Source: Eubacteriales bacterium (GTDB lineage: Bacteria > Bacillota > Clostridia > Oscillospirales > CAG-382). From it: a stretch of DNA of 64,000 nucleotides. Shown piece by piece: positions 4,739 through 47,145 of this stretch (positions are counted from its first letter, which is position 1; each line of letters begins with the position of its first letter). Position numbers and translations under genes: made by a program. Location of the stretch: the NCBI GenBank assembly GCA_045542335.1, contig JAZQKV010000049.1, forward strand, positions 10 to 64,009, in the 5' to 3' direction. The notes under the pieces are model-generated. The model did not search any database. It saw only the letters and a list, made by a program, of their open reading frames with translations, and was not told the origin of the DNA.

Positions 4739-7336
4739 ATGAAGAATATTATGAAAAAAACATTTTTCCATGTGACAATGGTTGTGATGCTTTTAGTTGT
4801 TATGGTGGCGAATGTCAAGGCGGCACAGTCTGACAGCTATTTTGAAGAATCAAGCTATTTTAAAGTGGCAAGCGGATATGCTCTTGCCTGGTCTGAGGTA
4901 TATGATGAAGCGGGATATGGTGAATTAGTGACAGGTGTCGCTCCGGGCACGACCGCAGGACAGGTGTGCGACAATGCCTTGTTCTCTTACGGTCTGAAAG
5001 TGGGAATAGTTGATGAAACGACTGATGAATATGGAGAGGCTGTTCTTAAAGTGCTTGAGGAAACAGACAGGGTTTATACAGGGTGTCTGCTTGTCACATA
5101 TGAAGAAGATTATGAAGAGGACATATACGATCCGTATCTTTGGGTTAACGCATACATCATTATTGTAGACGGTGATGCCGACGGAGACGGTGACAGAGAT
5201 GCAGATGACATGAAGCTTGGTGTTGAAATGATGCTTGAAGGCAGACGTGCCGATGAATACTCTGCCGCATTCGATAAGAATCTTGACGGAGAAATTACTC
5301 TTGCTGAATTGAGATGTCAGACTGTTGAAGCCTTTGACGAAAACAGCGATGCTCCCGATGAGGTGTCTCCTTTCGCAGACAGCTTTGCTTTTGTGCTTGA
5401 GGATGAGGCAACGTATGTCTCCATGGTTGAAAACGGAAAGGCTGTGATAAAAAGTTATCTGACGGTTTATCTTGACGGCAAAGCTAAAGATGTACCCGTG
5501 AAAAAGATAACTGAGGATATGGTTTCTGACCCTGAATGGGAGGGCTTTCTCGTAAACTATGATGAGGAATACGAGGAATTTGATTTTAGTGAGTATGTGG
5601 GAAAGCTCGCTGTTGCTTATAACGATGACGAGGGTTATTACTTTAAACTTCTTTCCGAAAGTGACTATAATGACAGCTCTGTTCTTGAGGGGGACGATGC
5701 TGAGAGTGCGTATATGTATACTTCGGAGGAAGTTTGGCTTTCGTTTGATGATGTTACAAAACGCATTACCCTTTCAGATACGGCAGAGGCGGGATTTGTG
5801 AGCCTTGCTGTCAAGGACTATTCGCAGATTGTGCTGACGGGTTATGATGCGGAAGATGAGTGGATTTGCCTGAGCTATACCGGGGATGAAATCTATAAAA
5901 TTGCCGAGGAAACAGAGCTTTACTATGCTGTTGTTATGGTGCAGAACAATCCCGGCGTGACAAAAATGGAAAACCTTGTGATGCTTTATGGTGAAGCGTG
6001 GGACGAATTGCCCTCCGAGGCTTTGGATTTCAGACCTGTTCCTGCTTCGGCAAGCTTCAGCCAGGATGAGAACTGGGGTATGGTGCTTGACAGTCAGGTG
6101 ACAGAATATGCAATTAAAGAGGATGATATAATTGTCAATAGAGATCTTTTGACTATCATTGAGGACGGAAAAACTACCTATGTTCCTGTCAAGAAGATTA
6201 CTCAGTTTATGGTTGACTATGAATCTAAATGGAAGGGATATATCCCATGCTACGATGAAGATTATTATGAATATGATTTCTCGGAATATGTGGGCAAGCC
6301 GGCAGTGGCACAGAAAGACCATAAGGGAAGATATATTTTCAGAACTCTTGAAATAGAAGATTATAATGATGGCGATGTTCTTTTATATGACGAGAGTGAC
6401 ATTGGAAACAGTGAAGGTGCTATCTTTGCATTTACAGCAGAGAATGTTGCTCTTATAAAGAAGGTTGGTTATAGCTACATCATTACCTCCGACGGTGAAA
6501 GTGAATACTCCGACAGTTTTACATATGGTGAGAATAACGAAACAACATTTAAACAATTAACTGTTAAGGACTATACAAAGATTATTATAAAGAGCGTTGA
6601 TGCCGAGGGAGAACCTGTTATAAGCGCATATGATTATGAAAATCTCCCTGATTTTGCTCATGATTTTTACTTTGACAAAGTGACTGTGGTTGTGGGTAAC
6701 AATTCAAAGACCATGAGAAACGAAAACCTCAGCTTTTTCTACGGAGAAACAGACAGAGAAATTGAAATTTATCCGGGAAAAATTACGGGATTTGCAATCG
6801 TCAACAGCTATGAAATCGATCCAACCGACAGCGGAAACGTATATTATGTAAGTGCTTATGACACAAAAACGGGCAATATCGGAACATATGAAGCCTTTTA
6901 CGGATACGAAATGCTTCTTGAACAGGGAGAGCTTCTTGGCATAACCTCAAAGGGCTATATAATGGATGATTACAGCTTTGGCTCGATATTGGAACAAGGC
7001 GAGCCGGATCTTGACATATACGATTTTGATGATAAAGTTGGAAACCTCGGCTGGTGCGAGCTTGCGGCATATGATGCCGAAGCGAAAATTATAGAACTTA
7101 AAGACGACAGCAATTGTTACTATGTTGACGATAAAACCGTTTTTGTTGAATATGACATTTCAGATGCCTGGTCAGCACTCAGGAGTGATTTAATTCTTAC
7201 CTCAAATGCAGCAAAAAACAATTTTGACGGAAAAACCGGATCATTCAAAGCTGTGTATGTGACGGCAAATGAACTTGAAACATCCCCGAACGAGGGACTT
7301 TTCACCGCTGTTTCGGTTATTCTTGTACACAAATAA
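4739..7336 (+). CDS. Secreted, very acidic D/E/Y-rich protein with an N-proximal dockerin-like EF-hand pair and a ~230-aa internal tandem duplication
   Basis: The start was moved to the ATG at 4739 (SD GAAGGTGG 7 nt upstream). Signal peptide: MKNIMKKTFFHVTMVVMLLVVMVANVKA/AQ. DGDADGDGDRDADD...FDKNLDGEITLAELR (nt 5165-5314) resembles the two calcium loops of a dockerin. No enzyme motif was recognised. Confidence 0.75.
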   Translation: MKNIMKKTFFHVTMVVMLLVVMVANVKAAQSDSYFEESSYFKVASGYALAWSEVYDEAGYGELVTGVAPGTTAGQVCDNALFSYGLKVGIVDETTDEYGEAVLKVLEETDRVYTGCLLVTYEEDYEEDIYDPYLWVNAYIIIVDGDADGDGDRDADDMKLGVEMMLEGRRADEYSAAFDKNLDGEITLAELRCQTVEAFDENSDAPDEVSPFADSFAFVLEDEATYVSMVENGKAVIKSYLTVYLDGKAKDVPVKKITEDMVSDPEWEGFLVNYDEEYEEFDFSEYVGKLAVAYNDDEGYYFKLLSESDYNDSSVLEGDDAESAYMYTSEEVWLSFDDVTKRITLSDTAEAGFVSLAVKDYSQIVLTGYDAEDEWICLSYTGDEIYKIAEETELYYAVVMVQNNPGVTKMENLVMLYGEAWDELPSEALDFRPVPASASFSQDENWGMVLDSQVTEYAIKEDDIIVNRDLLTIIEDGKTTYVPVKKITQFMVDYESKWKGYIPCYDEDYYEYDFSEYVGKPAVAQKDHKGRYIFRTLEIEDYNDGDVLLYDESDIGNSEGAIFAFTAENVALIKKVGYSYIITSDGESEYSDSFTYGENNETTFKQLTVKDYTKIIIKSVDAEGEPVISAYDYENLPDFAHDFYFDKVTVVVGNNSKTMRNENLSFFYGETDREIEIYPGKITGFAIVNSYEIDPTDSGNVYYVSAYDTKTGNIGTYEAFYGYEMLLEQGELLGITSKGYIMDDYSFGSILEQGEPDLDIYDFDDKVGNLGWCELAAYDAEAKIIELKDDSNCYYVDDKTVFVEYDISDAWSALRSDLILTSNAAKNNFDGKTGSFKAVYVTANELETSPNEGLFTAVSVILVHK
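5375..6754 (+). repeat. Intragenic tandem duplication (two ~230-aa modules) inside the 4739-7336 gene
   Basis: The two modules align with an offset of 230 aa. Module 1: YLTVYLDGKAKDVPVKKITEDMVSDPEWEGFLVNYDEEYEEFDFSEYVGKLAVA. Module 2: LLTIIEDGKTTYVPVKKITQFMVDYESKWKGYIPCYDEDYYEYDFSEYVGKPAVA. The similarity continues through ...KDYSQIVLTGYDAEDE versus ...KDYTKIIIKSVDAEGE. Confidence 0.75.
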
Positions 7337-30606: not shown

Positions 30607-30691
30607 GCGGCTGTGGCGGAACTGGCAGACGCGCACGTTTGAGGGGCGTGTGGATCACTCCGTATGGGTTCAAGTCCCATCAGCCGCACCA
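30607..30691 (+). tRNA. tRNA-Leu (anticodon GAG), type II with a long variable arm and an encoded CCA
   Basis: Folded by hand. Acceptor stem GCGGCTG/CAGCCGC. Three-bp D stem with a GG loop. Anticodon stem CACGT/GCGTG with the loop TT-GAG-GG. Variable arm of 13 nt (GGA/TCC stem). T arm ATGGG-TTCAAGT-CCCAT. Discriminator A followed by CCA. Confidence 0.95.
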
Positions 30692-38260: not shown

Positions 38261-38479
38261 TTATTCGTCCGTTTCTTCCTTGTCTTTTTGATATACAAGG
38301 ATGTCTTCGACTTTGCAATCGAGGATATTGCACAGGTCGTTAAGAGTAACGGTTGTTATGGGTTTATTGTGTTTTAGTCTGTCGAGCAGGCTTCTGCTGA
38401 GGTTATAGGTATTGATGAGCTTATAGGTTGACACGCCTTTTTGTTTCATTGTTTCGTAAAGGGGTTCGTATGAAATCAT
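38261..38479 (-). CDS. XRE/Cro-C1 family helix-turn-helix transcriptional regulator (YozG-like, 72 aa)
   Basis: MISYEPLYETMKQKGVSTYKLINTYNLSRSLLDRLKHNKPITTVTLNDLCNILDCKVEDILVY is a typical short HTH_26-type sequence. The SD GGAGG lies upstream. Confidence 0.85.
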   Translation of the reverse strand: MISYEPLYETMKQKGVSTYKLINTYNLSRSLLDRLKHNKPITTVTLNDLCNILDCKVEDILVYQKDKEETDE

Positions 38480-38520
38480 TTTTAAATTCCTCCGAGATGT
38501 AAATTATCTTTGATAATTTT

Positions 38521-38549
38521 ATTATAATTTATACTCGGTGTCTTGACAA
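38521..38549 (-). promoter_or_regulatory. Sigma-A promoter for the XRE regulator gene
   Basis: The minus strand reads TTGTCA (complement of 38544-38549), a 17-nt spacer, then TATAAT (complement of 38521-38526). Confidence 0.7.
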
Positions 38550-38571
38550 TTGTCGATATATAGAGTATAAT
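38543..38571 (+). promoter_or_regulatory. Consensus sigma-A promoter (upstream promoter P1 of the 38925 operon), divergent from and overlapping the XRE promoter
   Basis: TTGACA (38543-38548), a 17-nt spacer, then TATAAT (38566-38571). Both -35 boxes lie inside the perfect palindrome GACAATTGTC (38545-38554). Confidence 0.75.
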
Positions 38572-38662
38572 GCTTTTGTGAATAGATTTTTTTGGGAGGA
38601 AAAAGTTTTGAAAAGGAAAATCTGACTGCATTTTTTTATTTTTCAAAAGTGTCAATAAGCTC

Positions 38663-38691
38663 TTGACAAATATGGCAATATGTGTTAAAAT
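38663..38691 (+). promoter_or_regulatory. Sigma-A promoter P2 that drives the structured leader RNA
   Basis: TTGACA (38663-38668), a 17-nt spacer with a TG extension (38683-38684), then TAAAAT (38686-38691). The predicted start site is near 38698. Confidence 0.75.
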
Positions 38692-38697
38692 GATTAT

Positions 38698-38856
38698 GCC
38701 AAACAAACTGAATATATGGAAAAGTGGGTATATTTCCTTATCTATAGGAATATAATACCTTTTTCTGTCATGCTGTTTTACAGAATTTGATAAAATGCGG
38801 ATTCCGTATAGAAGCAGTATGATTATATACCCAATTCTGTATACAGTTTGTTTGGC
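38698..38856 (+). ncRNA. Unclassified structured cis-regulatory RNA (riboswitch-like aptamer candidate, ~159 nt)
   Basis: A 13-bp perfect closing helix pairs GCCAAACAAACTG (38698-38710) with CAGTTTGTTTGGC (38844-38856). Nested helices are TGGGTATAT (38725-38733)/ATATACCCA (38825-38833) and CATGCTG (38769-38775)/CAGTATG (38815-38821, one G-U). A local hairpin spans 38734-38750. The element is followed by a terminator and an SD. Confidence 0.55.
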
Positions 38857-38879
38857 GACGACTGGAATTCGTGTTTTTG

Positions 38880-38907
38880 TGCGCTGATTTCGGTCGGCGC
38901 ATTTTTT
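38880..38907 (+). terminator. Intrinsic terminator inside the 5' leader (expression-platform candidate)
   Basis: TGCGCTGA (38880-38887) pairs with TCGGCGCA (38894-38901) across a TTTCGG loop, with one G-U pair, followed by TTTTTT (38902-38907). It lies 7 nt upstream of the SD AGGAGG (38914-38919). Confidence 0.7.
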
Positions 38908-38924
38908 ATTTTTAGGAGGTATTT

Positions 38925-39575
38925 ATGGCTTCAAGTTACACAACCCACAATCTATCACCCGAATGCAAAGCTTTCGTTGTAAAAAAAGTGTATGAACACT
39001 ACAACATGAATATTTTTTGGATGGGAGTATGTCAGAAATTTTCCACGATGTGCGTATTCATCTTCCCTGTTATTACACTATTTTCAAATGAGAATTCGAC
39101 ATTAAAAATAACAATTGCAATTCTTTCTGCTTTAATTTCTCTAATCGTAAGTTTCTTTTGCGACACAACGGAATACACTTTGACTTTGCATATTGTACTT
39201 GACGCCTTTAAAACAGACTGCAACGACAGTTCTTTTGAAGCGAAATTCCAAGCTCTGATACCGTATATTCGAGAAATAGACTTTGCAAGGGGACGAAGTG
39301 ATTTCAAGGCATATTGTGAAGAATTAGATATTCAAATCAAACAATGTGATATGTTAACAAATCATGACAAAAGTGAAATGAACCGTCAACGATATATTAT
39401 TGCGGTATTATGTAGCATGGCTACAATTATTTGCTTGCTATTATTGTATTTGGTACAAGAATTGGACATAATATCTGTAATAATTCTGTGTTTTATCACT
39501 GCATCAACATTTATTGGTTTTATATTTATGCTGATTGATTGTATTTCGTTTTCAAGAAAAAATAGTAAAAAGTGA
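38925..39575 (+). CDS. Hypothetical 4-TM membrane protein (two TM hairpins flanking an ~85-aa soluble domain)
   Basis: 216 aa with a strong SD (AGGAGG, 5 nt spacing). TM hairpins lie at about aa 38-78 and 167-213. The gene is AT-rich and I recognised no family. Confidence 0.7.
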   Translation: MASSYTTHNLSPECKAFVVKKVYEHYNMNIFWMGVCQKFSTMCVFIFPVITLFSNENSTLKITIAILSALISLIVSFFCDTTEYTLTLHIVLDAFKTDCNDSSFEAKFQALIPYIREIDFARGRSDFKAYCEELDIQIKQCDMLTNHDKSEMNRQRYIIAVLCSMATIICLLLLYLVQELDIISVIILCFITASTFIGFIFMLIDCISFSRKNSKK

Positions 39576-39587
39576 GGAGAATCTATC

Positions 39588-42203
39588 ATGTCAAATAAAG
39601 TTATTTCTGTTGCGTTATGCTTTGTAATGCTGTTCTCACTATGTTCAATAACTGTGTCCGCCGCTTCTACATATTATTATTTGTATAACGTAAGTAATGT
39701 ATCTGCCAATTCGAGTAATACCGAAAGCAATTTTTCAAAGTACTGGGAATATTGGTCACAGGGGGGATCCATGTATTCAGGAATGCGAGATTATGGTTGC
39801 AGAGTTGTTGCACAGTCAAAGCTTTTGGTTGAATGCGGTGCTGCTTCTTCAAATGTTGATATTTTTAACCCTGACGTGTATTTTGAATGGGCTAACACTA
39901 CAAAATATTTTGAATATTTTGACACAGGCAGTATGTATGAGCAAACACAGTATGGTGGTTCAGGTGCCGCAGCTGTTGAATTTGCCAATAGTAATGGAAT
40001 AAACTTAAAAAAAGAAGGTTCGGTTGCATTGTCAGGAACTAACAGTGTTGAAGACGCAGAGTTAGTAATGGAATATATCAATGCTGGTTATTATATAATC
40101 CTTTCTTGCACTGCTCATCAAGCCTATGTTGGTCGTGAAGCTTCATTAAATGCAGGAACACCAATAGTTTTGAATTCATGGACTGGGTATTCTTATAGAA
40201 ATAAGAATAACATATATTTAAACAACTATAACGATTCATATTCAACAAGTAAGTATACAGCTTTTATATATTTTTCAAGTGACAATACTCCCATAATTTC
40301 TCCCGACGGCTACCTCTACAAAAGCCTTGATAATGACACAAGCAATCCGTCATTTCCCGGAAAATGGATAAGAGAATCAGATTCTACCGGAAGTGAATTG
40401 ATTGGTAGTATCCCATATGGTGAATATGCCGTTGTTACAAAATATAATTCCGGAAGAAAATGGGCGTATGTGAACTATAAAGGTGTTGAGGGATGGACTA
40501 TGCTCGATGAAGAGCTTTTCCCCTACCAAGGTTTGTACACCTGTCCTATAGTGACATTCAACTCAAATGGTGGAAGTGTTTCGACAAGTGATAAAAAGGT
40601 TTATATAAATACGCCATATGGCACACTTCCCACTCCAACACGAACAGGTTATACCTTCGACGGCTGGTATACCTCGGCAAGTGGAGGAACACTGGTTACC
40701 GCTTCAACAAATGTTACGTTGACAGGAAATCAAATGCTTTATGCTCATTGGAATCAAAGTTATTATACAGTATCGTATGATGCCAATGGTGGCAGTGGTG
40801 CACCGGAGAGCCAAACAGGTACAGCTGGAAGTTTCATATTCATTAGTGGTACAATTCCGGAAAGATTTCTGTACAATTTTTGTGGGTGGTATGGTGATTA
40901 CTGGGATGCGAGTACATACTATTCACCAGGTGATGAATATTATGGTGATAACATAACATTGTATGCACTTTGGGAAGCACCACAATCATACATAGCTTGT
41001 GGTGTAGAAAAGAATTCTTATTATGTACCATATCCTAGCCAAAAACGTTACTATTTGATAGAACCAACTTATGATGGTAAATATGTATTTGAATCCAAGG
41101 GCTCTTACGATACTGTTGCAAGGCTTTACGATTCTGGGGGCAACCTTTTAGCCTCGAATGATGATGGCGGAGATAATTATAATTTCAAGCTTGAATATGA
41201 CAGTTTTGAAGCTGATAAAACATATTATCTTCAGTATTGGTTTTACGATACAACTCTTAAAGGAAGTTTTTCTGTTGAAAGCTACAAACCGTATGTTATA
41301 AGTTATGATGCAAATGGAGGAACAGGAGTACCTGAAAATCAAACAAAAAAGCATAGAGTAGATGTAACACTTAGTACCGTAATACCTGTAAAAACGGGCT
41401 ACACCTTCAAGGGATGGTCAACAAGCAGTACGGGAAATGTTGTTTATGCAGCAGGTGCAACTTATTCGGCAAATTCAGATGTTACACTTTATGCCGTTTG
41501 GGATGAGCACATTCCCGGCGTCCCTACTTTAAACATAAATAAAACAAATGCATATAACAATGAAGCAATTACGTTTACGTGGAATGATGTTCAATATCGA
41601 GATTACTTCGAGTTTTTTATTGTTAATGCTGATACCGATGAAAGATTATATGTGGATTGGAACGTCTACGATACAACGTATACTTATACCGTAACAACAC
41701 CCGGAAACTATTATGCCTACATAGCTGCAATAAATGATGACCTCAGGGACGGCGGTCATTACTTCACCCATGGCAATCGTGTATATTTCACGATTTATGA
41801 CCGACCTACATATACCATTACATATGATGCCAACGGCGGAACAGGTGTGCCTGCAAGTCAAACCAAGTCATATGATATTGATTTAACGCTTTCTGCTATA
41901 GAGCCAATAAGAGATGGATATATATTCAAAGGTTGGGCAACAAGCAAATCGGGAAGTGTTGTTTATACCCCGGGAGAAATCTACACAACAAACAGCGAAA
42001 TAACGTTATATGCTTGTTGGACACTTTGTGGAGATATATACAACGACGGAAAAATTGACATACAAGATATGAAGTCTCTCGCTGCTTTTTTATCAAACGA
42101 GCAAGCTTCAATTCATGCGCTTGCTTCCGACCTCAATGCCGACGGCAAAATAACCCTGCATGACCTACGCATTCTATTTAAAAAGCTTGCATCAGGAGAA
42201 TGA
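39588..42203 (+). CDS. Secreted multidomain protein: papain-fold Cys-peptidase-like domain, SH3b, four Listeria-Bacteroides (Flg_new) repeats, a PPC-like domain and a C-terminal type I dockerin
   Basis: Signal peptide MSNKVISVALCFVMLFSLCSITVSA/AS. WSQGG...YGCRVVAQSKLL...SCTAHQAYVG shows a Gln/Cys/His order. YGEYAVVTKYNSGRKWAYVNYKGVEGWT is SH3b-like. Repeats include VTFNSNGGS...TGYTFDGWY and Y(D/V)ANGG(S/T)G.P...GY.FKGW. The dockerin is GDIYNDGKIDIQD...SDLNADGKITLHD (nt 42030-42200). Confidence 0.8.
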   Translation: MSNKVISVALCFVMLFSLCSITVSAASTYYYLYNVSNVSANSSNTESNFSKYWEYWSQGGSMYSGMRDYGCRVVAQSKLLVECGAASSNVDIFNPDVYFEWANTTKYFEYFDTGSMYEQTQYGGSGAAAVEFANSNGINLKKEGSVALSGTNSVEDAELVMEYINAGYYIILSCTAHQAYVGREASLNAGTPIVLNSWTGYSYRNKNNIYLNNYNDSYSTSKYTAFIYFSSDNTPIISPDGYLYKSLDNDTSNPSFPGKWIRESDSTGSELIGSIPYGEYAVVTKYNSGRKWAYVNYKGVEGWTMLDEELFPYQGLYTCPIVTFNSNGGSVSTSDKKVYINTPYGTLPTPTRTGYTFDGWYTSASGGTLVTASTNVTLTGNQMLYAHWNQSYYTVSYDANGGSGAPESQTGTAGSFIFISGTIPERFLYNFCGWYGDYWDASTYYSPGDEYYGDNITLYALWEAPQSYIACGVEKNSYYVPYPSQKRYYLIEPTYDGKYVFESKGSYDTVARLYDSGGNLLASNDDGGDNYNFKLEYDSFEADKTYYLQYWFYDTTLKGSFSVESYKPYVISYDANGGTGVPENQTKKHRVDVTLSTVIPVKTGYTFKGWSTSSTGNVVYAAGATYSANSDVTLYAVWDEHIPGVPTLNINKTNAYNNEAITFTWNDVQYRDYFEFFIVNADTDERLYVDWNVYDTTYTYTVTTPGNYYAYIAAINDDLRDGGHYFTHGNRVYFTIYDRPTYTITYDANGGTGVPASQTKSYDIDLTLSAIEPIRDGYIFKGWATSKSGSVVYTPGEIYTTNSEITLYACWTLCGDIYNDGKIDIQDMKSLAAFLSNEQASIHALASDLNADGKITLHDLRILFKKLASGE

Positions 42204-42210
42204 ATAAAAT

Positions 42211-42262
42211 AATGGTAAGTGTCCCCATATTGGCGGTACACTTACCATTACTTTGTAAATTT
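42211..42262 (+). terminator. Hairpin terminator after the dockerin protein gene
   Basis: AATGGTAAGTGT (42211-42222) pairs with ACACTTACCATT (42238-42249) as a 12-bp perfect stem with a 15-nt loop. The tail ACTTTGTAAATTTTT is only moderately T-rich. Confidence 0.55.
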
Positions 42263-42285: not shown

Positions 42286-42314
42286 TTGACAATCCTCCAT
42301 TTTTCTGCTATCAT
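42286..42314 (+). promoter_or_regulatory. Sigma-A promoter for comEC
   Basis: TTGACA (42286-42291), a 17-nt spacer, then TATCAT (42309-42314). Confidence 0.65.
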
Positions 42315-42347
42315 AAACCAAAATAAAAAGAGAAAAGGAGAAGCACC

Positions 42348-44774
42348 GTGTCATATATCCCCGTATTGAAGCGTCCATTGATGATTGTTGCAATTCTCAC
42401 GGTTGCTTTTGACCTGCTTGTCCTCTCTTTGCCGTTTGAAGCCTCCGAAATAATAGTAATTATGATGGCAATTGCACTTGTGGCTTCATGCCTTACCACC
42501 GCTTTTCTTTGCAAAATTTCATATAAAAATCAAAACGCCGCCAAATTGAAGGAGCCTGTGTGTGGATTAACCCTGTGCCTCGTTTTTCTGACGGCGTTTT
42601 CTTTTTATGCAACGATAGTCAGATATAACGTGCAAGTTCCGGCGGAAAATTTTCTCCGGGAATATGCTGATACAGATGTTGTGGTGGATTTCACCGGCGA
42701 AATCACGGAAAAACAAACAGGTATCAATTATGCAAATTATACCATTGAGCTTTCCGAACCTGTTAAATTAAAAGCGAAAATGCTTGTCTTTGGCTCGGAG
42801 TTTTCAGATGTCGGCGATTTTGTAAAGGGTTCTGCAACAGTTGCACGCCCCCAAAGCGTCACTTCAAGAGGTTTTGAGGAACAAAGAAATCTTATGGCTG
42901 ACGGGATTTTTGTAAAGCTTGAAGCAAAATCAATTCCCAAACCTGTTGGAAGACGCAAGCAGACACCTGTGGAGGTTCTGCGCACGCGTGTTGACAGAGA
43001 AATTCTCAGATATGTCGGAAACGGCAACAATCTCGATATATATGCTCTTTCCAAAGGGCTTGTTATGGGCGATAAATCCGATATACCTGCCGATATGTCC
43101 GAGGATTTCAAACGTTGCGGAATTTCGCATATTCTCACAGTTTCGGGACTGCATTTTAGTATTATTGCGGCTTTTCTTGGGTTGCTTCTCGGAAAGCTTA
43201 AATGCCCAAAAGCTTTGAATGCGGCAATTGTAATTTGCTTTTGCTTCGGATTCATGGCGTTTTCAGGCTTTGGAACTCCTGTTATAAGAAGCGGAATAAT
43301 GGCAGCAATGCTCGGCATGGCAACGCTTTTACACAGAAAAACTGACGGACTTACGTCACTTTGCGCTGCTGCAATTATTGTTTGTGTCGTGTCGCCATAT
43401 TCGGTTTTTGATGTGGGTGCGGCTCTTTCTTTTCTTGCCACAGCAGGAATACTTGTGAGCTCGGGGCTTTCTTCTGTGTGCGCAAGATTTGCCCACAAAA
43501 TTTTTAAGTGCAGCAAAACAGGGTTTGTCCTTGCAAAATCATTGGGGTATATTGCTTGCGCAATGGTGGTTTCGGCAAGTGCTTGCGCTTTTACACTTTG
43601 TATTACGGTGCCGTCGTTCGGAAAAATTTCAACACTTTCAATTGTGGCAAATCTTATTACAGGTCCGGTTGTCACGGTTATGCTTTTGCTTCTTGTTGTT
43701 ATTTGCACGCTTTCGCTTGTTCCGCTTCATATTTGCTCGGTTGTTTGTTCTGTCTGCGGAATTTTAGTCAAGCTTGCGGCGAAATATCTCTCGGCAGTGT
43801 CAAAAATGCTGTCCGATGCGAGATTTGCAGAGGTTGCGGTGCCGGAGAACACGGCATTGCTTGTGATACTTGGAGTAATCACGGGGATTATTATGCTTTC
43901 CACGGCTTTTTTACCAAGGAAAAAGCTGGTTGCTCCGAGTGTTTGCTTGGTTGCAATCTATGTTTTATGTATAGGTGTGTCAGTCTTTTCGGCGACTTGG
44001 GAGTTTGCAAGACCCAAAATTCTTGTTTCATATGACAATAACGGCGCATATCTTTCCATAAGATGCCCCGAAGACAAACGGCTTGAAAATGTCACCTATA
44101 CTTATGTTTCAGCAGGTGCAAAAAACGCTTTGCACTTTTCAAAATTTACGGATATTTGCGATGAGATCACGGGTAAAAACGTATATGTTGTTGCGCCAAG
44201 AGGGGACTTTCTTGCCAGTCGTGAGTTGCGATGTATAACCGAGTTCGAGGAAAAATACGGAATTTCAAAGCTCTTTTTGCCGGAAAGGCAAAATGAACAG
44301 TATGAAAAGCTTGCGGAATATCTTTCTGAAGCAGAGATTTCATTTGAATATTATTCAGAAAATCAATTGATTTTCAGTGAGTTTCGTCTTGACTTTACAC
44401 CCGAAGATGATGGATATAATGTTCTTGTGAGCGAGCTTGACGGGAGTGTTGCAACGCCAAAGCTTCTCTTTTGCGATACAGACAGATATGGTGCGCATAT
44501 TGCCGGAAAAATCAGGGGTGTTAACGGCGAGAATATTTCGGACATGATTGTCAGCGATGCAAGAATCCCGATTTATATTCACTCTGCAAAAAGACAGACA
44601 AAGGATTTTGAAGGGGTGCTTTCTCAAAGACAAAATGTTCATATAATGAAGCTCAAAACAGAATATGGAATAGCAATGGAAAGTAATTTGCCCAAAACGG
44701 AGTATTTCGGAAAGTCGGGACTTTCGCTATGGGATTATTTACAAAATACCCTTGAAATAACACCGCTTCGGTGA
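42348..44774 (+). CDS. comEC: ComEC/Rec2 family DNA-internalisation competence protein
   Basis: 808 aa with a GTG start after AAAGGAGAAG. It has an N-terminal OB-like (DUF4131) region and the polytopic competence domain with GISHILTVSGLHFSIIAAFLG. The C-terminal ~260 aa lack an HxHxDH motif. Confidence 0.8.
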   Translation: MSYIPVLKRPLMIVAILTVAFDLLVLSLPFEASEIIVIMMAIALVASCLTTAFLCKISYKNQNAAKLKEPVCGLTLCLVFLTAFSFYATIVRYNVQVPAENFLREYADTDVVVDFTGEITEKQTGINYANYTIELSEPVKLKAKMLVFGSEFSDVGDFVKGSATVARPQSVTSRGFEEQRNLMADGIFVKLEAKSIPKPVGRRKQTPVEVLRTRVDREILRYVGNGNNLDIYALSKGLVMGDKSDIPADMSEDFKRCGISHILTVSGLHFSIIAAFLGLLLGKLKCPKALNAAIVICFCFGFMAFSGFGTPVIRSGIMAAMLGMATLLHRKTDGLTSLCAAAIIVCVVSPYSVFDVGAALSFLATAGILVSSGLSSVCARFAHKIFKCSKTGFVLAKSLGYIACAMVVSASACAFTLCITVPSFGKISTLSIVANLITGPVVTVMLLLLVVICTLSLVPLHICSVVCSVCGILVKLAAKYLSAVSKMLSDARFAEVAVPENTALLVILGVITGIIMLSTAFLPRKKLVAPSVCLVAIYVLCIGVSVFSATWEFARPKILVSYDNNGAYLSIRCPEDKRLENVTYTYVSAGAKNALHFSKFTDICDEITGKNVYVVAPRGDFLASRELRCITEFEEKYGISKLFLPERQNEQYEKLAEYLSEAEISFEYYSENQLIFSEFRLDFTPEDDGYNVLVSELDGSVATPKLLFCDTDRYGAHIAGKIRGVNGENISDMIVSDARIPIYIHSAKRQTKDFEGVLSQRQNVHIMKLKTEYGIAMESNLPKTEYFGKSGLSLWDYLQNTLEITPLR

Positions 44775-46785: not shown

Positions 46786-46833
46786 CGCTTTAGTTAGTTA
46801 AAGTCCGGAGGTTTTCCGTCGGACAAAAATAAA

Positions 46834-47145
46834 TGCGTTGAGCGAAAAGAAGTAACCTCGAAACGTCATTTTCAGAGAGCCGTCGGTTGGTGAAAGGCGG
46901 TAGTGACCTTGCGGTGAATACATTTCGTAAGCAGCACACCAAACGGCATTGTTTCGTGATCGGAAACGCAGATGCCCAGTAGGCTGTGACGGGTTCGTCC
47001 GTTATAACGATAAAGTATAAATGAGACAGTTGCAAATGTCTTTGAGTACTTGATGAGGCCGATTTCCGTGAGGGAACGGTAAAACTGAGGTGGTACAGCG
47101 ATTTATTCGCCCTCTGATTTTAATCAATCGGAGGGTGTTTTTTAT
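46834..47145 (+). promoter_or_regulatory. T-box riboswitch (tRNA-sensing transcription attenuator), probable Tyr (UAC) specifier
   Basis: Stem I has a GA/K-turn region (TGCGTTGAGCGAAA), AGTA (46851-46854), an AG bulge AGAGAG (46874-46879) and a distal loop GGTTGGTGAAAGG. The specifier loop reads GAA-TAC-A (codon at 46919-46921) just before TTTCG, which pairs with CGAAA (46843-46847). There is an F-box CCGTTA and the T-box sequence AAACTGAGGTGGTACAGCG (47082-47100). The terminator pairs CGCCCTCTGATT with AATCGGAGGGTG (47108-47137), followed by TTTTTT. Confidence 0.85.

Follow-up and report, generated by a model that had tools for sequence, protein, structure and literature searches.

A compositionally foreign block flanked by M50 protease and comEC genes, carrying a structured leader RNA, a four-TM protein and a secreted hydrolase-like protein

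The window (the whole 64,000-nucleotide stretch of DNA that was analysed) contains, bounded by an M50 protease gene on one side and comEC on the other, a lineage-specific, compositionally foreign block at positions 38261-42262, for which we infer horizontal acquisition. Taken as a whole, the region is best explained as a foreign cassette that carries a hydrolase and its membrane partner as cargo, controlled by an XRE regulator and an attenuator RNA, and we hold this explanation with reasonable though far from full confidence. Judged from the sequences compared, the leader RNA is a regulatory element in its own right, spread across the class and found before many unrelated genes. Its family is widespread in gut Clostridia and is missing from RNA catalogues (Rfam 15). 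A preliminary description of the block had listed its features, and all of these were found, in or close to the places described.

The GC content of the block is 36.4%, compared to 43.6% for the genome (z -3.0, bottom 0.8% of 2331 4-kb windows), so that the AT-richness earlier read from spot counts is upheld by a full computation. The tetranucleotide distance of the block is in the top 0.5%, and the shift in GC sets in at ~38300-38400 and ends at ~42300-42400. The two + strand genes have a GC3 of 0.29 (the gene for an 871-aa secreted protein, bottom 0.9% of 1413 long ORFs) and 0.30 (the 4-TM gene, bottom 1.4%), against a mean of 0.44, and the XRE gene has 0.49, similar to the host. The flanking M50 peptidase gene and comEC were identified by a family search of the translated ORFs; synteny with genomes of the same genus is confined to the comEC-DUF4886 side, and gene order at the locus is otherwise different. 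The XRE regulator, the 4-TM protein and the head domain of the 871-aa protein are single-copy in their own genome. The 4-TM protein was not found among 30 relatives, and the XRE gene has no ortholog in either of the two same-genus genomes; as the closest genomes share only ~40% protein identity, such absence is weak evidence on timing. By GC, tetranucleotides, GC3 and the absence of the TM and XRE genes from relatives, the block is both deviant and lineage-specific, in line with the preliminary description.

These data could also describe an old, fast-evolving accessory locus that owes its low GC to its class of genes and not to a foreign origin, a reading that we consider unlikely but worth taking seriously. 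The class in question would be low-expression surface proteins rich in Asn, Tyr and Ser, and further low-GC3 ORFs do exist elsewhere in the genome; still, GC3 itself is extreme here, not just the amino-acid-driven GC1 and GC2. The host-like GC3 of the XRE gene fits an old locus, and so does the lack of mobility genes: ORFs and family search revealed no integrase or transposase inside the block, as had been claimed, and no empty site, tRNA or direct repeats marking an insertion were found. The nearest genomes are too distant for dating a gain or loss. The TM family, on the other hand, is tiny and patchy (eight clusters in 5.8 billion proteins) and appears in other lineages in different surroundings, regulatory as well as mobile, which speaks for a foreign cassette.

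Divergent from the rest of the cassette is the XRE-type regulator, a 72-aa HTH_26 protein (38261-38479, - strand; Pfam PF13443, E 4.2e-14). The 445-nt intergenic region that follows (38480-38924) harbours, on the + strand, a pair of sigma-70 promoters close to the consensus; thus Pfam and a promoter scan confirm the XRE gene and the dual promoters of the preliminary description. The upstream promoter (38543-38571) has 12/12 consensus matches and has its -35 region in common with the XRE promoter on the opposite strand (38549-38521, 11/12 matches). The overlapping -35 boxes of these back-to-back promoters are contained in the palindrome GACAATTGTC (38545-38554, inverted repeat I2), and the surrounding region, 38521-38571, is a candidate operator to which XRE likely binds. 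Between both + strand promoters is a mini-ORF of five codons, MKRKI (38608-38625, + strand), with a TTG start and a GGGAGG Shine-Dalgarno. The second promoter belongs to the leader (38663-38691, + strand; TTGACA-17-TAAAAT with a TG extension, 11/12 matches); copies can be aligned through its -35 and extended -10, and it is conserved together with the RNA unit in other genomes.

The leader RNA itself (38696-38911, + strand) is matched by the covariance model R1 with 181 bits (E 5e-32) and has a fold z-score of -7.9, which together with covariation establishes it as a genuine structured regulatory RNA, as had been described. All of its elements are on the + strand. Helix P1 closes a sensor domain and is formed by two arms, 38698-38714 and 38840-38856 (17 nt, 94% complementary); across the family its 14 pairs are 97% paired, 10 of them with changes on both sides. 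Within the domain are segments W (38783-38789) and X (38792-38805), and the 3' part of X pairs either with W, giving hairpin H (91% paired across the family), or with Y (38864-38878), giving a pseudoknot. The 15 pairs of X:Y are 95-98% paired, five show changes on both sides, and one locus, L055, has a matched AUAG/CUAU insertion. Y and its linker (38856-38878) also include the 5' strand of an antiterminator (38856-38869), with which the P1 3' arm shares its outer 3 bp; the 3' strand (38886-38899) lies inside the intrinsic terminator T (38879-38912), which consists of a stem-loop (38879-38902) with a UUCG loop and a U-run (38903-38912). The antiterminator has 13 pairs, 94% paired, and its key pair is A-U in 31 cases, U-A in 18 and G-C in 1, while the 10 pairs of T are 99% paired and nine covary.

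The family alignment was fitted to a model that included neither X:Y nor the antiterminator. For P1, X:Y, T and H every measure is above all 500 shuffles; for the antiterminator, 0/500 shuffles equal the real value, or 3/500 on one measure. Helix pairing is far higher than in slid controls, and G·U outnumbers A·C by 70 to 1 in P1, 104 to 9 in X:Y and 109 to 0 in T. In the minimum free energy fold of the window copy, 38859-38869 is paired with 38886-38896. In the ensemble with Y free, T reaches a probability of 0.45 and the antiterminator 0.40; when X and Y are masked, T is at 0.98 in 58/58 copies. The comparisons support a predicted four-way switch made up of H, the X:Y pseudoknot, the antiterminator and the terminator, whose competing helices are mutually exclusive.

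The operon would then be controlled in two layers: the divergent XRE, a putative repressor acting at the overlapping promoters, and the transcription-attenuating leader of ~215 nt with its own strong promoter. X, inside the domain closed by P1, could fold onto W or pair with Y, which is just outside P1, the latter creating the pseudoknot. With X:Y and P1 formed, the antiterminator 5' strand would be occupied, T would fold and transcription would stop. If H instead captured X, the linker and Y would be free to pair with the loop and the 3' strand of the terminator, letting RNA polymerase through into the operon. We infer this direction of regulation, and likewise some ligand or protein that would select either H or X:Y; neither a ligand nor a factor acting in trans was identified for the leader.

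Of 151 genomes from the order, 54 carry the leader family according to model R1, as do 27 of 120 from the class; neither sequence nor structure gave a match among the 4227 families of Rfam 15. The leader is the sole part of the region with DNA-level conservation across families. Units are ~160-225 nt long, each has its own promoter, even in tandem, and a genome can contain up to 11 of them; the scaffold is conserved and the inner hairpins vary between copies. The genes 3' of the leaders are diverse surface or membrane genes without a common pathway. Copy number, tandem units with separate promoters, a promoter in each unit that is strong and conserved, a terminator that is likewise strong, and variable hairpins on a conserved scaffold would also suit a terminated transcript that is chiefly a stand-alone small RNA, trans-acting or protein-binding, with read-through being incidental. 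This appears improbable to us. In 33 of 54 cases (61%) the first downstream ORF, read from the leader's strand and preceded by a Shine-Dalgarno, starts 12-33 nt past the end of the model and its U-run, which leaves no space for a second promoter, so that it can be expressed only by read-through. Nor would a pure small-RNA gene have any use for an antiterminator that is conserved, covaries and competes with T. The two roles are compatible, in that terminated riboswitch fragments are able to act in trans.

It is also conceivable that the two arms of P1 serve as inverted repeats in a cwpV-type invertible DNA switch and that the members of the RNA family are in fact phase-variation switches, with the promoter outside the repeats and the orientation setting the terminator logic. 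In cwpV a promoter lies upstream, followed by a repeat-flanked segment and the surface-protein gene (PMC2784873). The gross layout here is similar, with 17-nt repeats around ~125 nt before a surface-protein gene; long-repeat elements do precede the TM-hydrolase module in some of its relatives, with a tyrosine recombinase gene adjoining in two and a promoter inside the repeats in one. One dominant orientation (cwpV is ~95% OFF) would leave only that form in assemblies. However, DNA repeats are expected to be strand-symmetric, which the G·U excess in P1 is not. The native arrangement has ~109 matches (~95 clearly real) in 401 genomes, and the post-inversion arrangement 16, which is the control level, with 0 true inverted copies. 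There is no recombinase beside the window copy or the other copies examined, and X:Y, the antiterminator and T, three further covarying helices, suffice for an RNA switch without any inversion. Because G·U far exceeds A·C and no inverted copies are assembled, a DNA inversion switch is very improbable, and the attenuating RNA remains the preferred reading of the leader.

Downstream of the leader are the 4-TM protein (38925-39575, + strand; 216 aa) and the secreted 871-aa protein (39588-42203, + strand), both present as listed earlier according to hydrophobic segments and Pfam. The former has four hydrophobic segments and matched no Pfam or NCBIfam family. The latter has a signal peptide (aa 1-25), a Cys/His head that is not catalogued (aa ~28-235, nt 39669-40292, + strand), an SH3b-like domain (aa 261-303), four Listeria-Bacteroides (Flg_new) repeats and a C-terminal dockerin (aa 815-867). 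It has 240 representative homologs, and comparison of homologs shows Q58, C71 and H177 of the head to be invariant. AlphaFold2 with an alignment gives a pLDDT of 85-95 across aa 40-230, and the top Foldseek matches are papain-fold peptidases (pseudomurein endoisopeptidase, C39-like domain), with a best E of only 0.17. The modelled head is thus probably a papain fold. The label "peptidase-like" of the preliminary description is backed by the invariant Gln, Cys and His and by these weak fold matches, but not by any family model: Pfam, NCBIfam, PDB-sequence and profile-profile searches linked the head to no peptidase family. Most likely the protein serves as a hydrolase of the cell wall (peptidoglycan or peptide) and is displayed on a cohesin scaffold. 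The operon ends in a long hairpin, a probable terminator (42211-42249, + strand), whose fold z of -4.2 shows that the delimiting hairpin described earlier is real; 3' of it the promoter scan found a comEC promoter (42286-42314, + strand; TTGACA-17-TATCAT with TG).

A homolog of the 4-TM protein (52-70% identity) is directly 5' of a large secreted protein in 5/5 other contexts found, which include loci L093, L094, L095/96 and L097/98. The head of the partner is the same Cys/His domain in L093, NlpC/P60 in L094 and L095/96, and CHAP in L097/98, where a GH25-CHAP-dockerin gene comes next. Long inverted repeats, near-perfect, 24-27 nt in length and 200-250 nt apart, precede the pair in three of the contexts (L095, L097 and probably L093); in L095 and L097 a recombinase gene lies immediately upstream, and L095 has a strong promoter inside the repeats. 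Relatives of the module adjoin recombinase, ArdA and Abi genes. The two genes are a real, conserved module. The broader claim of a self-contained module holds for this pair but not for the regulators, which are not intrinsic to it: the XRE gene travels neither with the pair nor with the RNA family in the contexts examined elsewhere, and the leader RNA does not accompany the pair in the other contexts found. The gene arrangement is best explained if the membrane protein is a dedicated partner of the hydrolase-like protein. A toxin-immunity pair, in which the secreted hydrolase attacks the walls of competitors and the 4-TM protein protects the producer, would account for the tight pairing, kept while heads are swapped (NlpC/P60, CHAP, novel head), and for relatives with on/off-type layouts near defence or mobility genes. 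It is nevertheless doubtful. The positive-inside rule places the N-terminus, the 70-aa central domain and the C-terminus of the TM protein in the cytoplasm, its outside loops have ~3-5 residues, and it is hard to envisage how these would neutralise an extracellular enzyme. Given its dockerin, the secreted protein should stay attached to the scaffold on the surface of the producer itself and not be released. The immunity role proposed earlier for the TM protein is accordingly a poor fit to its topology.

Several known systems resemble parts of the cassette. Pseudoknot-controlled attenuating riboswitches such as fluoride and c-di-GMP-II resemble the leader in three ways: the 5' sensor domain covaries, is conserved and is closed by P1; the choice between antiterminator and intrinsic terminator depends on whether a long-range helix forms; and the terminator is just 5' of the RBS. 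In Clostridia, c-di-GMP riboswitches precede many unrelated surface-protein genes, with several copies per genome, and this makes them a functional analogue of the multi-copy leader. The leader differs from known riboswitches in being much larger, with variable inner hairpins, no Rfam match and a conserved promoter for each unit, tandem units included. Most metabolite riboswitches precede genes of a common pathway, and the lack of one here counts against our explanation. Cro/CI-type XRE regulators likewise have a small divergent HTH gene and overlapping promoters, here with a palindrome over both -35 boxes, although binding by the present XRE is putative and its gene is elsewhere unlinked to the RNA family or the module. 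NlpC/P60 and CHAP hydrolases, of the papain-like superfamily, share the signal peptide and the N-terminal domain with invariant Cys/His followed by SH3b and repeats, and occupy the same slot 3' of the 4-TM partner gene in related loci; the present head differs in having no sequence or profile match to them and a weak fold likeness. For the dockerin, the cohesin-dockerin displayed enzymes of Ruminococcus-type bacteria are the comparison group. In Clostridioides difficile cwpV (Emerson et al. 2009, PMC2784873), too, the promoter is outside a repeat-flanked ~125-200 nt and expression of the surface protein hinges on an intrinsic terminator within the leader, whereas here the repeats behave as an RNA helix, the terminator is outside them and under RNA-RNA competition, no adjacent recombinase was found, and none of the ~95 assembled copies is inverted. 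Finally, promoter invertons with an adjacent tyrosine recombinase (fim-type; Bacteroides, Clostridia) have the layout of the module relatives at L095, L097 and probably L093, while in the window the module has neither repeats nor recombinase and that position is taken by the XRE-controlled promoter and the RNA leader.

Only one part of the 7-kb region is conserved at the DNA level across genera, families and orders among the 30 relatives compared. This part (~38630-38922), which often occurs in several copies, holds the leader RNA (38696-38911, plus strand) and the promoter of its own (38663-38691). The order of elements in the leader unit can be read from the aligned copies: a conserved -35 box and extended -10, the start at AUGCCAAAC, the closing helix P1 (38698-38714 with 38840-38856), variable inner hairpins, the invariant GAAUUUGAUAAAAAYGCAAAUUCC, then GGCGACNAUCGGAGUUUGCGUUUUUU after P1, a UUCG-capped GC-rich hairpin with a U-run, and finally the ribosome binding site (RBS). 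Searches with a covariance model place the family in 39 of 97 genera of the order (54 of 151 genomes) and in 22 of 90 genera of the class (27 of 120 genomes); a single genome (G489) has up to 11 copies, and some copies stand in tandem. In the genome of the window itself the model also picks up, with lower scores, at least three other copies (39-59 bits; C17:20740-20908, C30:808-984 and C31:3652-3788, all on the minus strand), and two of these three lie directly 5' of secreted LRR-type proteins. As for the tandem arrays, in one locus of G489 (L113, C6:110800-112600) leader units end at ~150, 405, 640 and 885, and more arrays are found on G489:C23, G439:C14, G030:C8 and G086:C1. The units of such arrays carry a terminator each, and only the last of them abuts an RBS.

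Searches with Rfam 15 gave no relevant match to the leader on the window region (E up to 1) or on six loci (E up to 0.1). When the whole window was searched at gathering scores, the T-box leader (46829-47117, plus strand; RF00230, 110 bits) and a tRNA (30607-30688) were found and the leader stayed unmatched. A literature search by motif sequence returned nothing relevant to it. The same is true of the first 200 of 408 supplementary files of the largest catalogue of gut structured RNAs (Fremin & Bhatt 2021). The preliminary description had proposed a structured leader RNA here, and this is genuine, with covarying helices and a class-wide family. The leader is a well-resolved member of a class-wide, riboswitch-like RNA family that is missing from Rfam 15.

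The copies sit in front of genes. In 54 of 58 copies there is a same-strand ORF with a Shine-Dalgarno sequence within 160 nt, and 33 of these 54 ORFs start 12-33 nt past the end of the model. The downstream genes share no common family and the gene set gives no clue to a ligand. Their products are mostly surface, membrane or secreted proteins, including BspA-type LRR (LRR_5), Cu-amine-oxidase-N (Cu_amine_oxidN1), GLUG, collagen, SLH, cohesin and LiaF-like proteins, and 34 of the 54 (as a raw count) have an N-terminal hydrophobic segment.

Helix statistics were computed on the 58 copies (alignment A4), with 500 shuffles and slid helices as controls; the alignment was fitted to a model that contained neither X:Y nor the antiterminator. 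P1 has 14 pairs that are 97% paired, with 10 pairs changed on both sides, and the terminator T (38879-38912) has 10 pairs, 99% paired, with nine changed on both sides. Helix X:Y (38792-38805 with 38864-38878) has 15 pairs, 95-98% paired, five of which are changed on both sides. For hairpin H, formed by the 3' part of X (38798-38804) with W (38783-38789), the values are five pairs, 91% and four, and for the antiterminator (38856-38869 with 38886-38899) 13 pairs, 94% and six. All of these measures exceed 500 of 500 shuffles, with the exception of one antiterminator measure, for which 3 of 500 shuffles came as high, and the slid controls show pairing of only 30-52%. Since X lies within the domain closed by P1 and Y lies outside it, X:Y is a pseudoknot that crosses P1. 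One copy has a matched 4-nt insertion in this helix, AUAG in X and CUAU in Y.

The helices compete with each other. The segment CAAAUUCC is common to H and X:Y. The antiterminator pairs GCGACNAUCGGAGU (the linker and the start of Y) with ACUUCGGUN'GGCGC (the terminator loop and 3' strand), its key pair being A-U in 31 copies, U-A in 18 and G-C in one, and its columns overlap T, Y and the outer part of P1. This gives a chain of exclusions: H against X:Y, X:Y against the antiterminator, the outer 3 bp of P1 against the antiterminator, and the antiterminator against T. In a nested-only ensemble with Y free, T has a probability of 0.45 and the antiterminator 0.40; masking X and Y, to mimic their pairing with each other, raises T to 0.98 in 58 of 58 copies. 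A mutually exclusive terminator and antiterminator are thus linked to a sensor domain, which is what marks an attenuator leader. That T is simply a constitutive terminator is overturned by the ensemble calculation together with the covariation of the antiterminator. A LoaP-like NusG paralog acting as antiterminator was also considered and rejected, as nearly all of the 151 genomes have exactly one NusG-family gene, whether they carry the motif or not. In the simplest reading, P1 and X:Y would form in the OFF state and T would fold, while in the ON state H would form, leaving Y free for the antiterminator. Something acting on the P1-closed domain would choose between the two states.

The arms of P1 are also inverted repeats at the DNA level (17 nt, 94% complementary, 125 nt apart) in a layout that resembles the cwpV switch (PMC2784873), so that they could be read as the ends of an invertible DNA switch, an inverton. 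However, the mismatches are strand-asymmetric: G·U pairs outnumber A·C by 70 to 1 in P1, 104 to 9 in X:Y and 109 to 0 in T, and such an excess points to selection on the sense-strand RNA. Among 401 genomes there are ~95 real copies in the native arrangement, whereas matches to the inverted pattern stay at control level; these are orientation counts at the level of assemblies, and a rare flipped subpopulation may exist. No recombinase is found in the block or adjoining the other copies examined, although a distant one may exist, and the RNA helices by themselves make up a complete switch. We therefore consider the inverton very improbable for this leader. The arms GCCAAAC/GTTTGGC look like the core sites of an integron attC site, but by reasoning the own promoters, the scattered units and the sense-strand RNA helices speak against this. 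A recently active MITE was rejected given that copies within one genome diverge internally and keep a fixed orientation to the downstream gene. The idea that the RNA codes for a leader peptide kept across the family, or for a type I toxin, was rejected from the alignments, in which the 24-codon ORF of the window copy is not kept in the other copies.

An attenuator that senses a signal is the reading that we prefer for the RNA, and what it would sense is a more speculative matter. We tentatively suggest, while regarding it as doubtful, a new riboswitch class of gut and rumen Clostridia, in which one global signal (for example a second messenger, or a cue from the envelope or from nutrition) would stabilise or block X:Y and in this way gate a large, variable set of genes for surface proteins, adhesins and cell-wall remodelling, as many as 11 in a genome. 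With lower probability, the terminated leader may also act in trans as a small RNA, since every unit, even within the tandem arrays, has its own promoter.

In the window, the leader is part of a larger control region. The XRE gene (38261-38479, minus strand), encoding an HTH_26 regulator of 72 aa, is followed by a 445-nt intergenic region with two near-consensus promoters on the plus strand and a divergent XRE promoter. A palindrome is common to the -35 box of the XRE promoter and the first plus-strand promoter, and part of the region has a marked tendency to fold (z -7.9). Between the first plus-strand promoter, presumably under XRE control, and that of the leader there is an ORF of five codons (MKRKI; 38608-38625), preceded by a strong Shine-Dalgarno sequence. 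XRE is not the cognate regulator of the leader RNA, since the upstream neighbours of the other copies are unrelated housekeeping genes.

Downstream lie the gene of a 216-aa protein with four TM segments (38925-39575) and that of an 871-aa secreted protein (39588-42203), which has a signal peptide, a weak SH3b match, four Listeria-Bacteroides repeats and a C-terminal dockerin (Dockerin_1, PF00404; aa 815-867, 29.5 bits against a cut-off of 22.9). Between the Listeria-Bacteroides repeats, aa ~455-560 (window ~40950-41260; …LYDSGGNLLASNDDGG…) look by eye like a PPC or collagen-binding-type beta-sandwich, and Pfam reports nothing for this segment at E up to 0.01. The TM family is small, with eight clusters in 5.8 billion proteins. 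In all five other contexts that were recovered, the gene directly 3' of the TM gene, 0-145 nt away, encodes a large protein with several domains that is secreted. In L093 the partner has the same unassigned N-terminal head (78% identity, against 70% for the TM protein), in L094 and L095/96 it has an NlpC/P60 head, and in L097/98 a CHAP head, followed there by a GH25-CHAP-dockerin gene. Across these contexts the hydrolase-type head is thus swapped, and the TM partner and gene order are retained. The TM protein is mostly cytoplasmic by the positive-inside rule. The immunity role once proposed for it is thus weak, and the protein would fit better as a regulator in the membrane, as a partner for export or activation, or in a holin-like function than as an extracellular immunity protein.

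Control of this two-gene module appears to differ between lineages. In L095 and L097, a gene for a small tyrosine recombinase and near-perfect inverted repeats of 24-27 nt, 200-250 nt apart, lie directly 5' of the TM gene (L095:4687-4980; L097:481-733). A strong promoter inside the L095 repeats (4874-4902) faces the operon, and inverted repeats resembling both sets are found upstream of the TM gene in L093 (~58-88 and ~331-360). Judged from their layout, these elements look like promoter invertons, which suggests phase-variable control of the module in those other lineages. Homologous modules elsewhere adjoin recombinase, ArdA and Abi genes. As an example, a metagenome contig carries AbiEii, DUF4357, a Schlafen/AlbA_2 gene and an ArdA-like gene beside the module (L095:1-4685), which together make up a defence and mobile-element neighbourhood. 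The leader RNA is found in none of the other TM-hydrolase loci, and loci with only the head have neither the TM gene nor the leader. XRE and the leader RNA are add-ons that are separable from the TM-hydrolase module. The preliminary description had suggested that the HTH protein, RNA, membrane protein and hydrolase could be one self-contained module; this holds for the pair of TM and secreted protein, and XRE and the RNA are not intrinsic parts, since neither accompanies the pair in the other loci. In the window genome, the presumably XRE-controlled promoter and the RNA leader fill the position that recombinase-linked repeats have in other lineages.

In the head of the 871-aa protein (aa ~28-235), residues Q58, C71 and H177 are invariant among 17 homologs. 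Pfam has nothing for the head at E up to 5, NCBIfam has no match, and PDB sequence and profile searches gave nothing relevant. Homology to CHAP or NlpC/P60 heads was rejected, as profile comparison with hhalign detected none (probability <1%). AlphaFold2 reaches a pLDDT of 85-95 for the head with an alignment and 35 from the single sequence. The best Foldseek matches are weak (PeiR 8z4n, C39-like 3zua, ZUFSP and FMDV Lpro; E 0.17-1.5, TM-scores 0.24-0.53), and these structural neighbours, with a pseudomurein endoisopeptidase and a C39-like domain among them, are peptidases of the papain fold. From the invariant Gln, Cys and His, the confident fold and these weak papain-fold neighbours, the 871-aa protein is probably a cell-wall or peptide hydrolase displayed via its dockerin. 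The head family has ~240 representative clusters, is nearly always N-terminal in secreted proteins, and is carried by, among others, metagenome-assembled genomes of Oscillospiraceae, Dysosmobacter, Evtepia, Lachnospiraceae and Ruminococcus.

All parts listed for the 4-kb stretch (XRE, promoters, structured RNA, 4-TM protein, secreted dockerin protein and hairpin) are indeed present. The block (38261-42262) is flanked by an M50 protease gene and comEC, and a long hairpin (42211-42249) closes the unit just 5' of the comEC promoter. Its AT-richness, originally taken from spot counts, was borne out by a full calculation: 36.4% GC in the block against 43.6% in the genome, which is within the lowest 0.8% of 4-kb windows, with a tetranucleotide distance in the top 0.5%. 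The shift in GC starts at ~38.35 kb and ends at ~42.35 kb. The two cargo genes have a GC3 of 0.29-0.30, the lowest 0.9-1.4% among 1413 long ORFs, and XRE has a host-like GC3 of 0.49. Clusters of long ORFs with GC3 of 0.22-0.31, below that of the block, occur elsewhere in the genome on C108 (1559-5482), C76 (750-3406), C21 (143-11202) and C43 (23034-23979), and are candidates for more foreign islands.

The window genome has one copy each of XRE, the TM protein and the head domain. None of the 30 relatives, which include two of the same genus and 16 of the same family, was found to have the TM protein, and the two same-genus genomes have no XRE ortholog. These genomes are themselves rather distant, as ComEC and M50 are only ~40% identical. 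Synteny with them is limited to the comEC-DUF4886 side, and in one (G001) M50 and comEC are 142 kb apart. No closer relatives were found among the metagenome and genome contigs scanned with M50, and no empty site was recovered from the genomes compared. The absence in relatives, together with the one-sided synteny, suggests that the block is lineage-specific and lies at a place where gene order departs from that of relatives. The earlier view of horizontally acquired cargo agrees with the deviant composition and the apparently lineage-specific distribution; mobility genes, already noted as missing, are found neither in nor beside the block, and the same is true of a tRNA target and direct repeats. 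The preliminary interpretation is supported in part: the block is best seen as an accessory, compositionally foreign cassette that holds a genuine module of a membrane partner and a probable secreted enzyme, with regulators separable from it.

It is worth noting how common the leader is: between about a quarter and a third of the Clostridia genomes sampled carry it, often more than once, and its architecture (sensor domain, pseudoknot, antiterminator, terminator) is resolved enough for direct testing. If it does sense a ligand, it would be a new orphan riboswitch and would offer a handle on the choice of surface proteins in abundant uncultured gut and rumen Clostridia. The cargo contributes two protein families that had not been catalogued, the 4-TM partner and the Cys/His head of ~200 aa. 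For evolution, it is of interest that the two-gene module of the window follows an RNA switch and that the same module follows recombinase-linked inverted repeats in certain other lineages. Among known systems, the cwpV switch is like the leader in overall layout. The NlpC-P60 and CHAP papain-like peptidases have the catalytic-type Cys, His and Gln pattern in common with the head, which differs from them in lacking a match to their family profiles.
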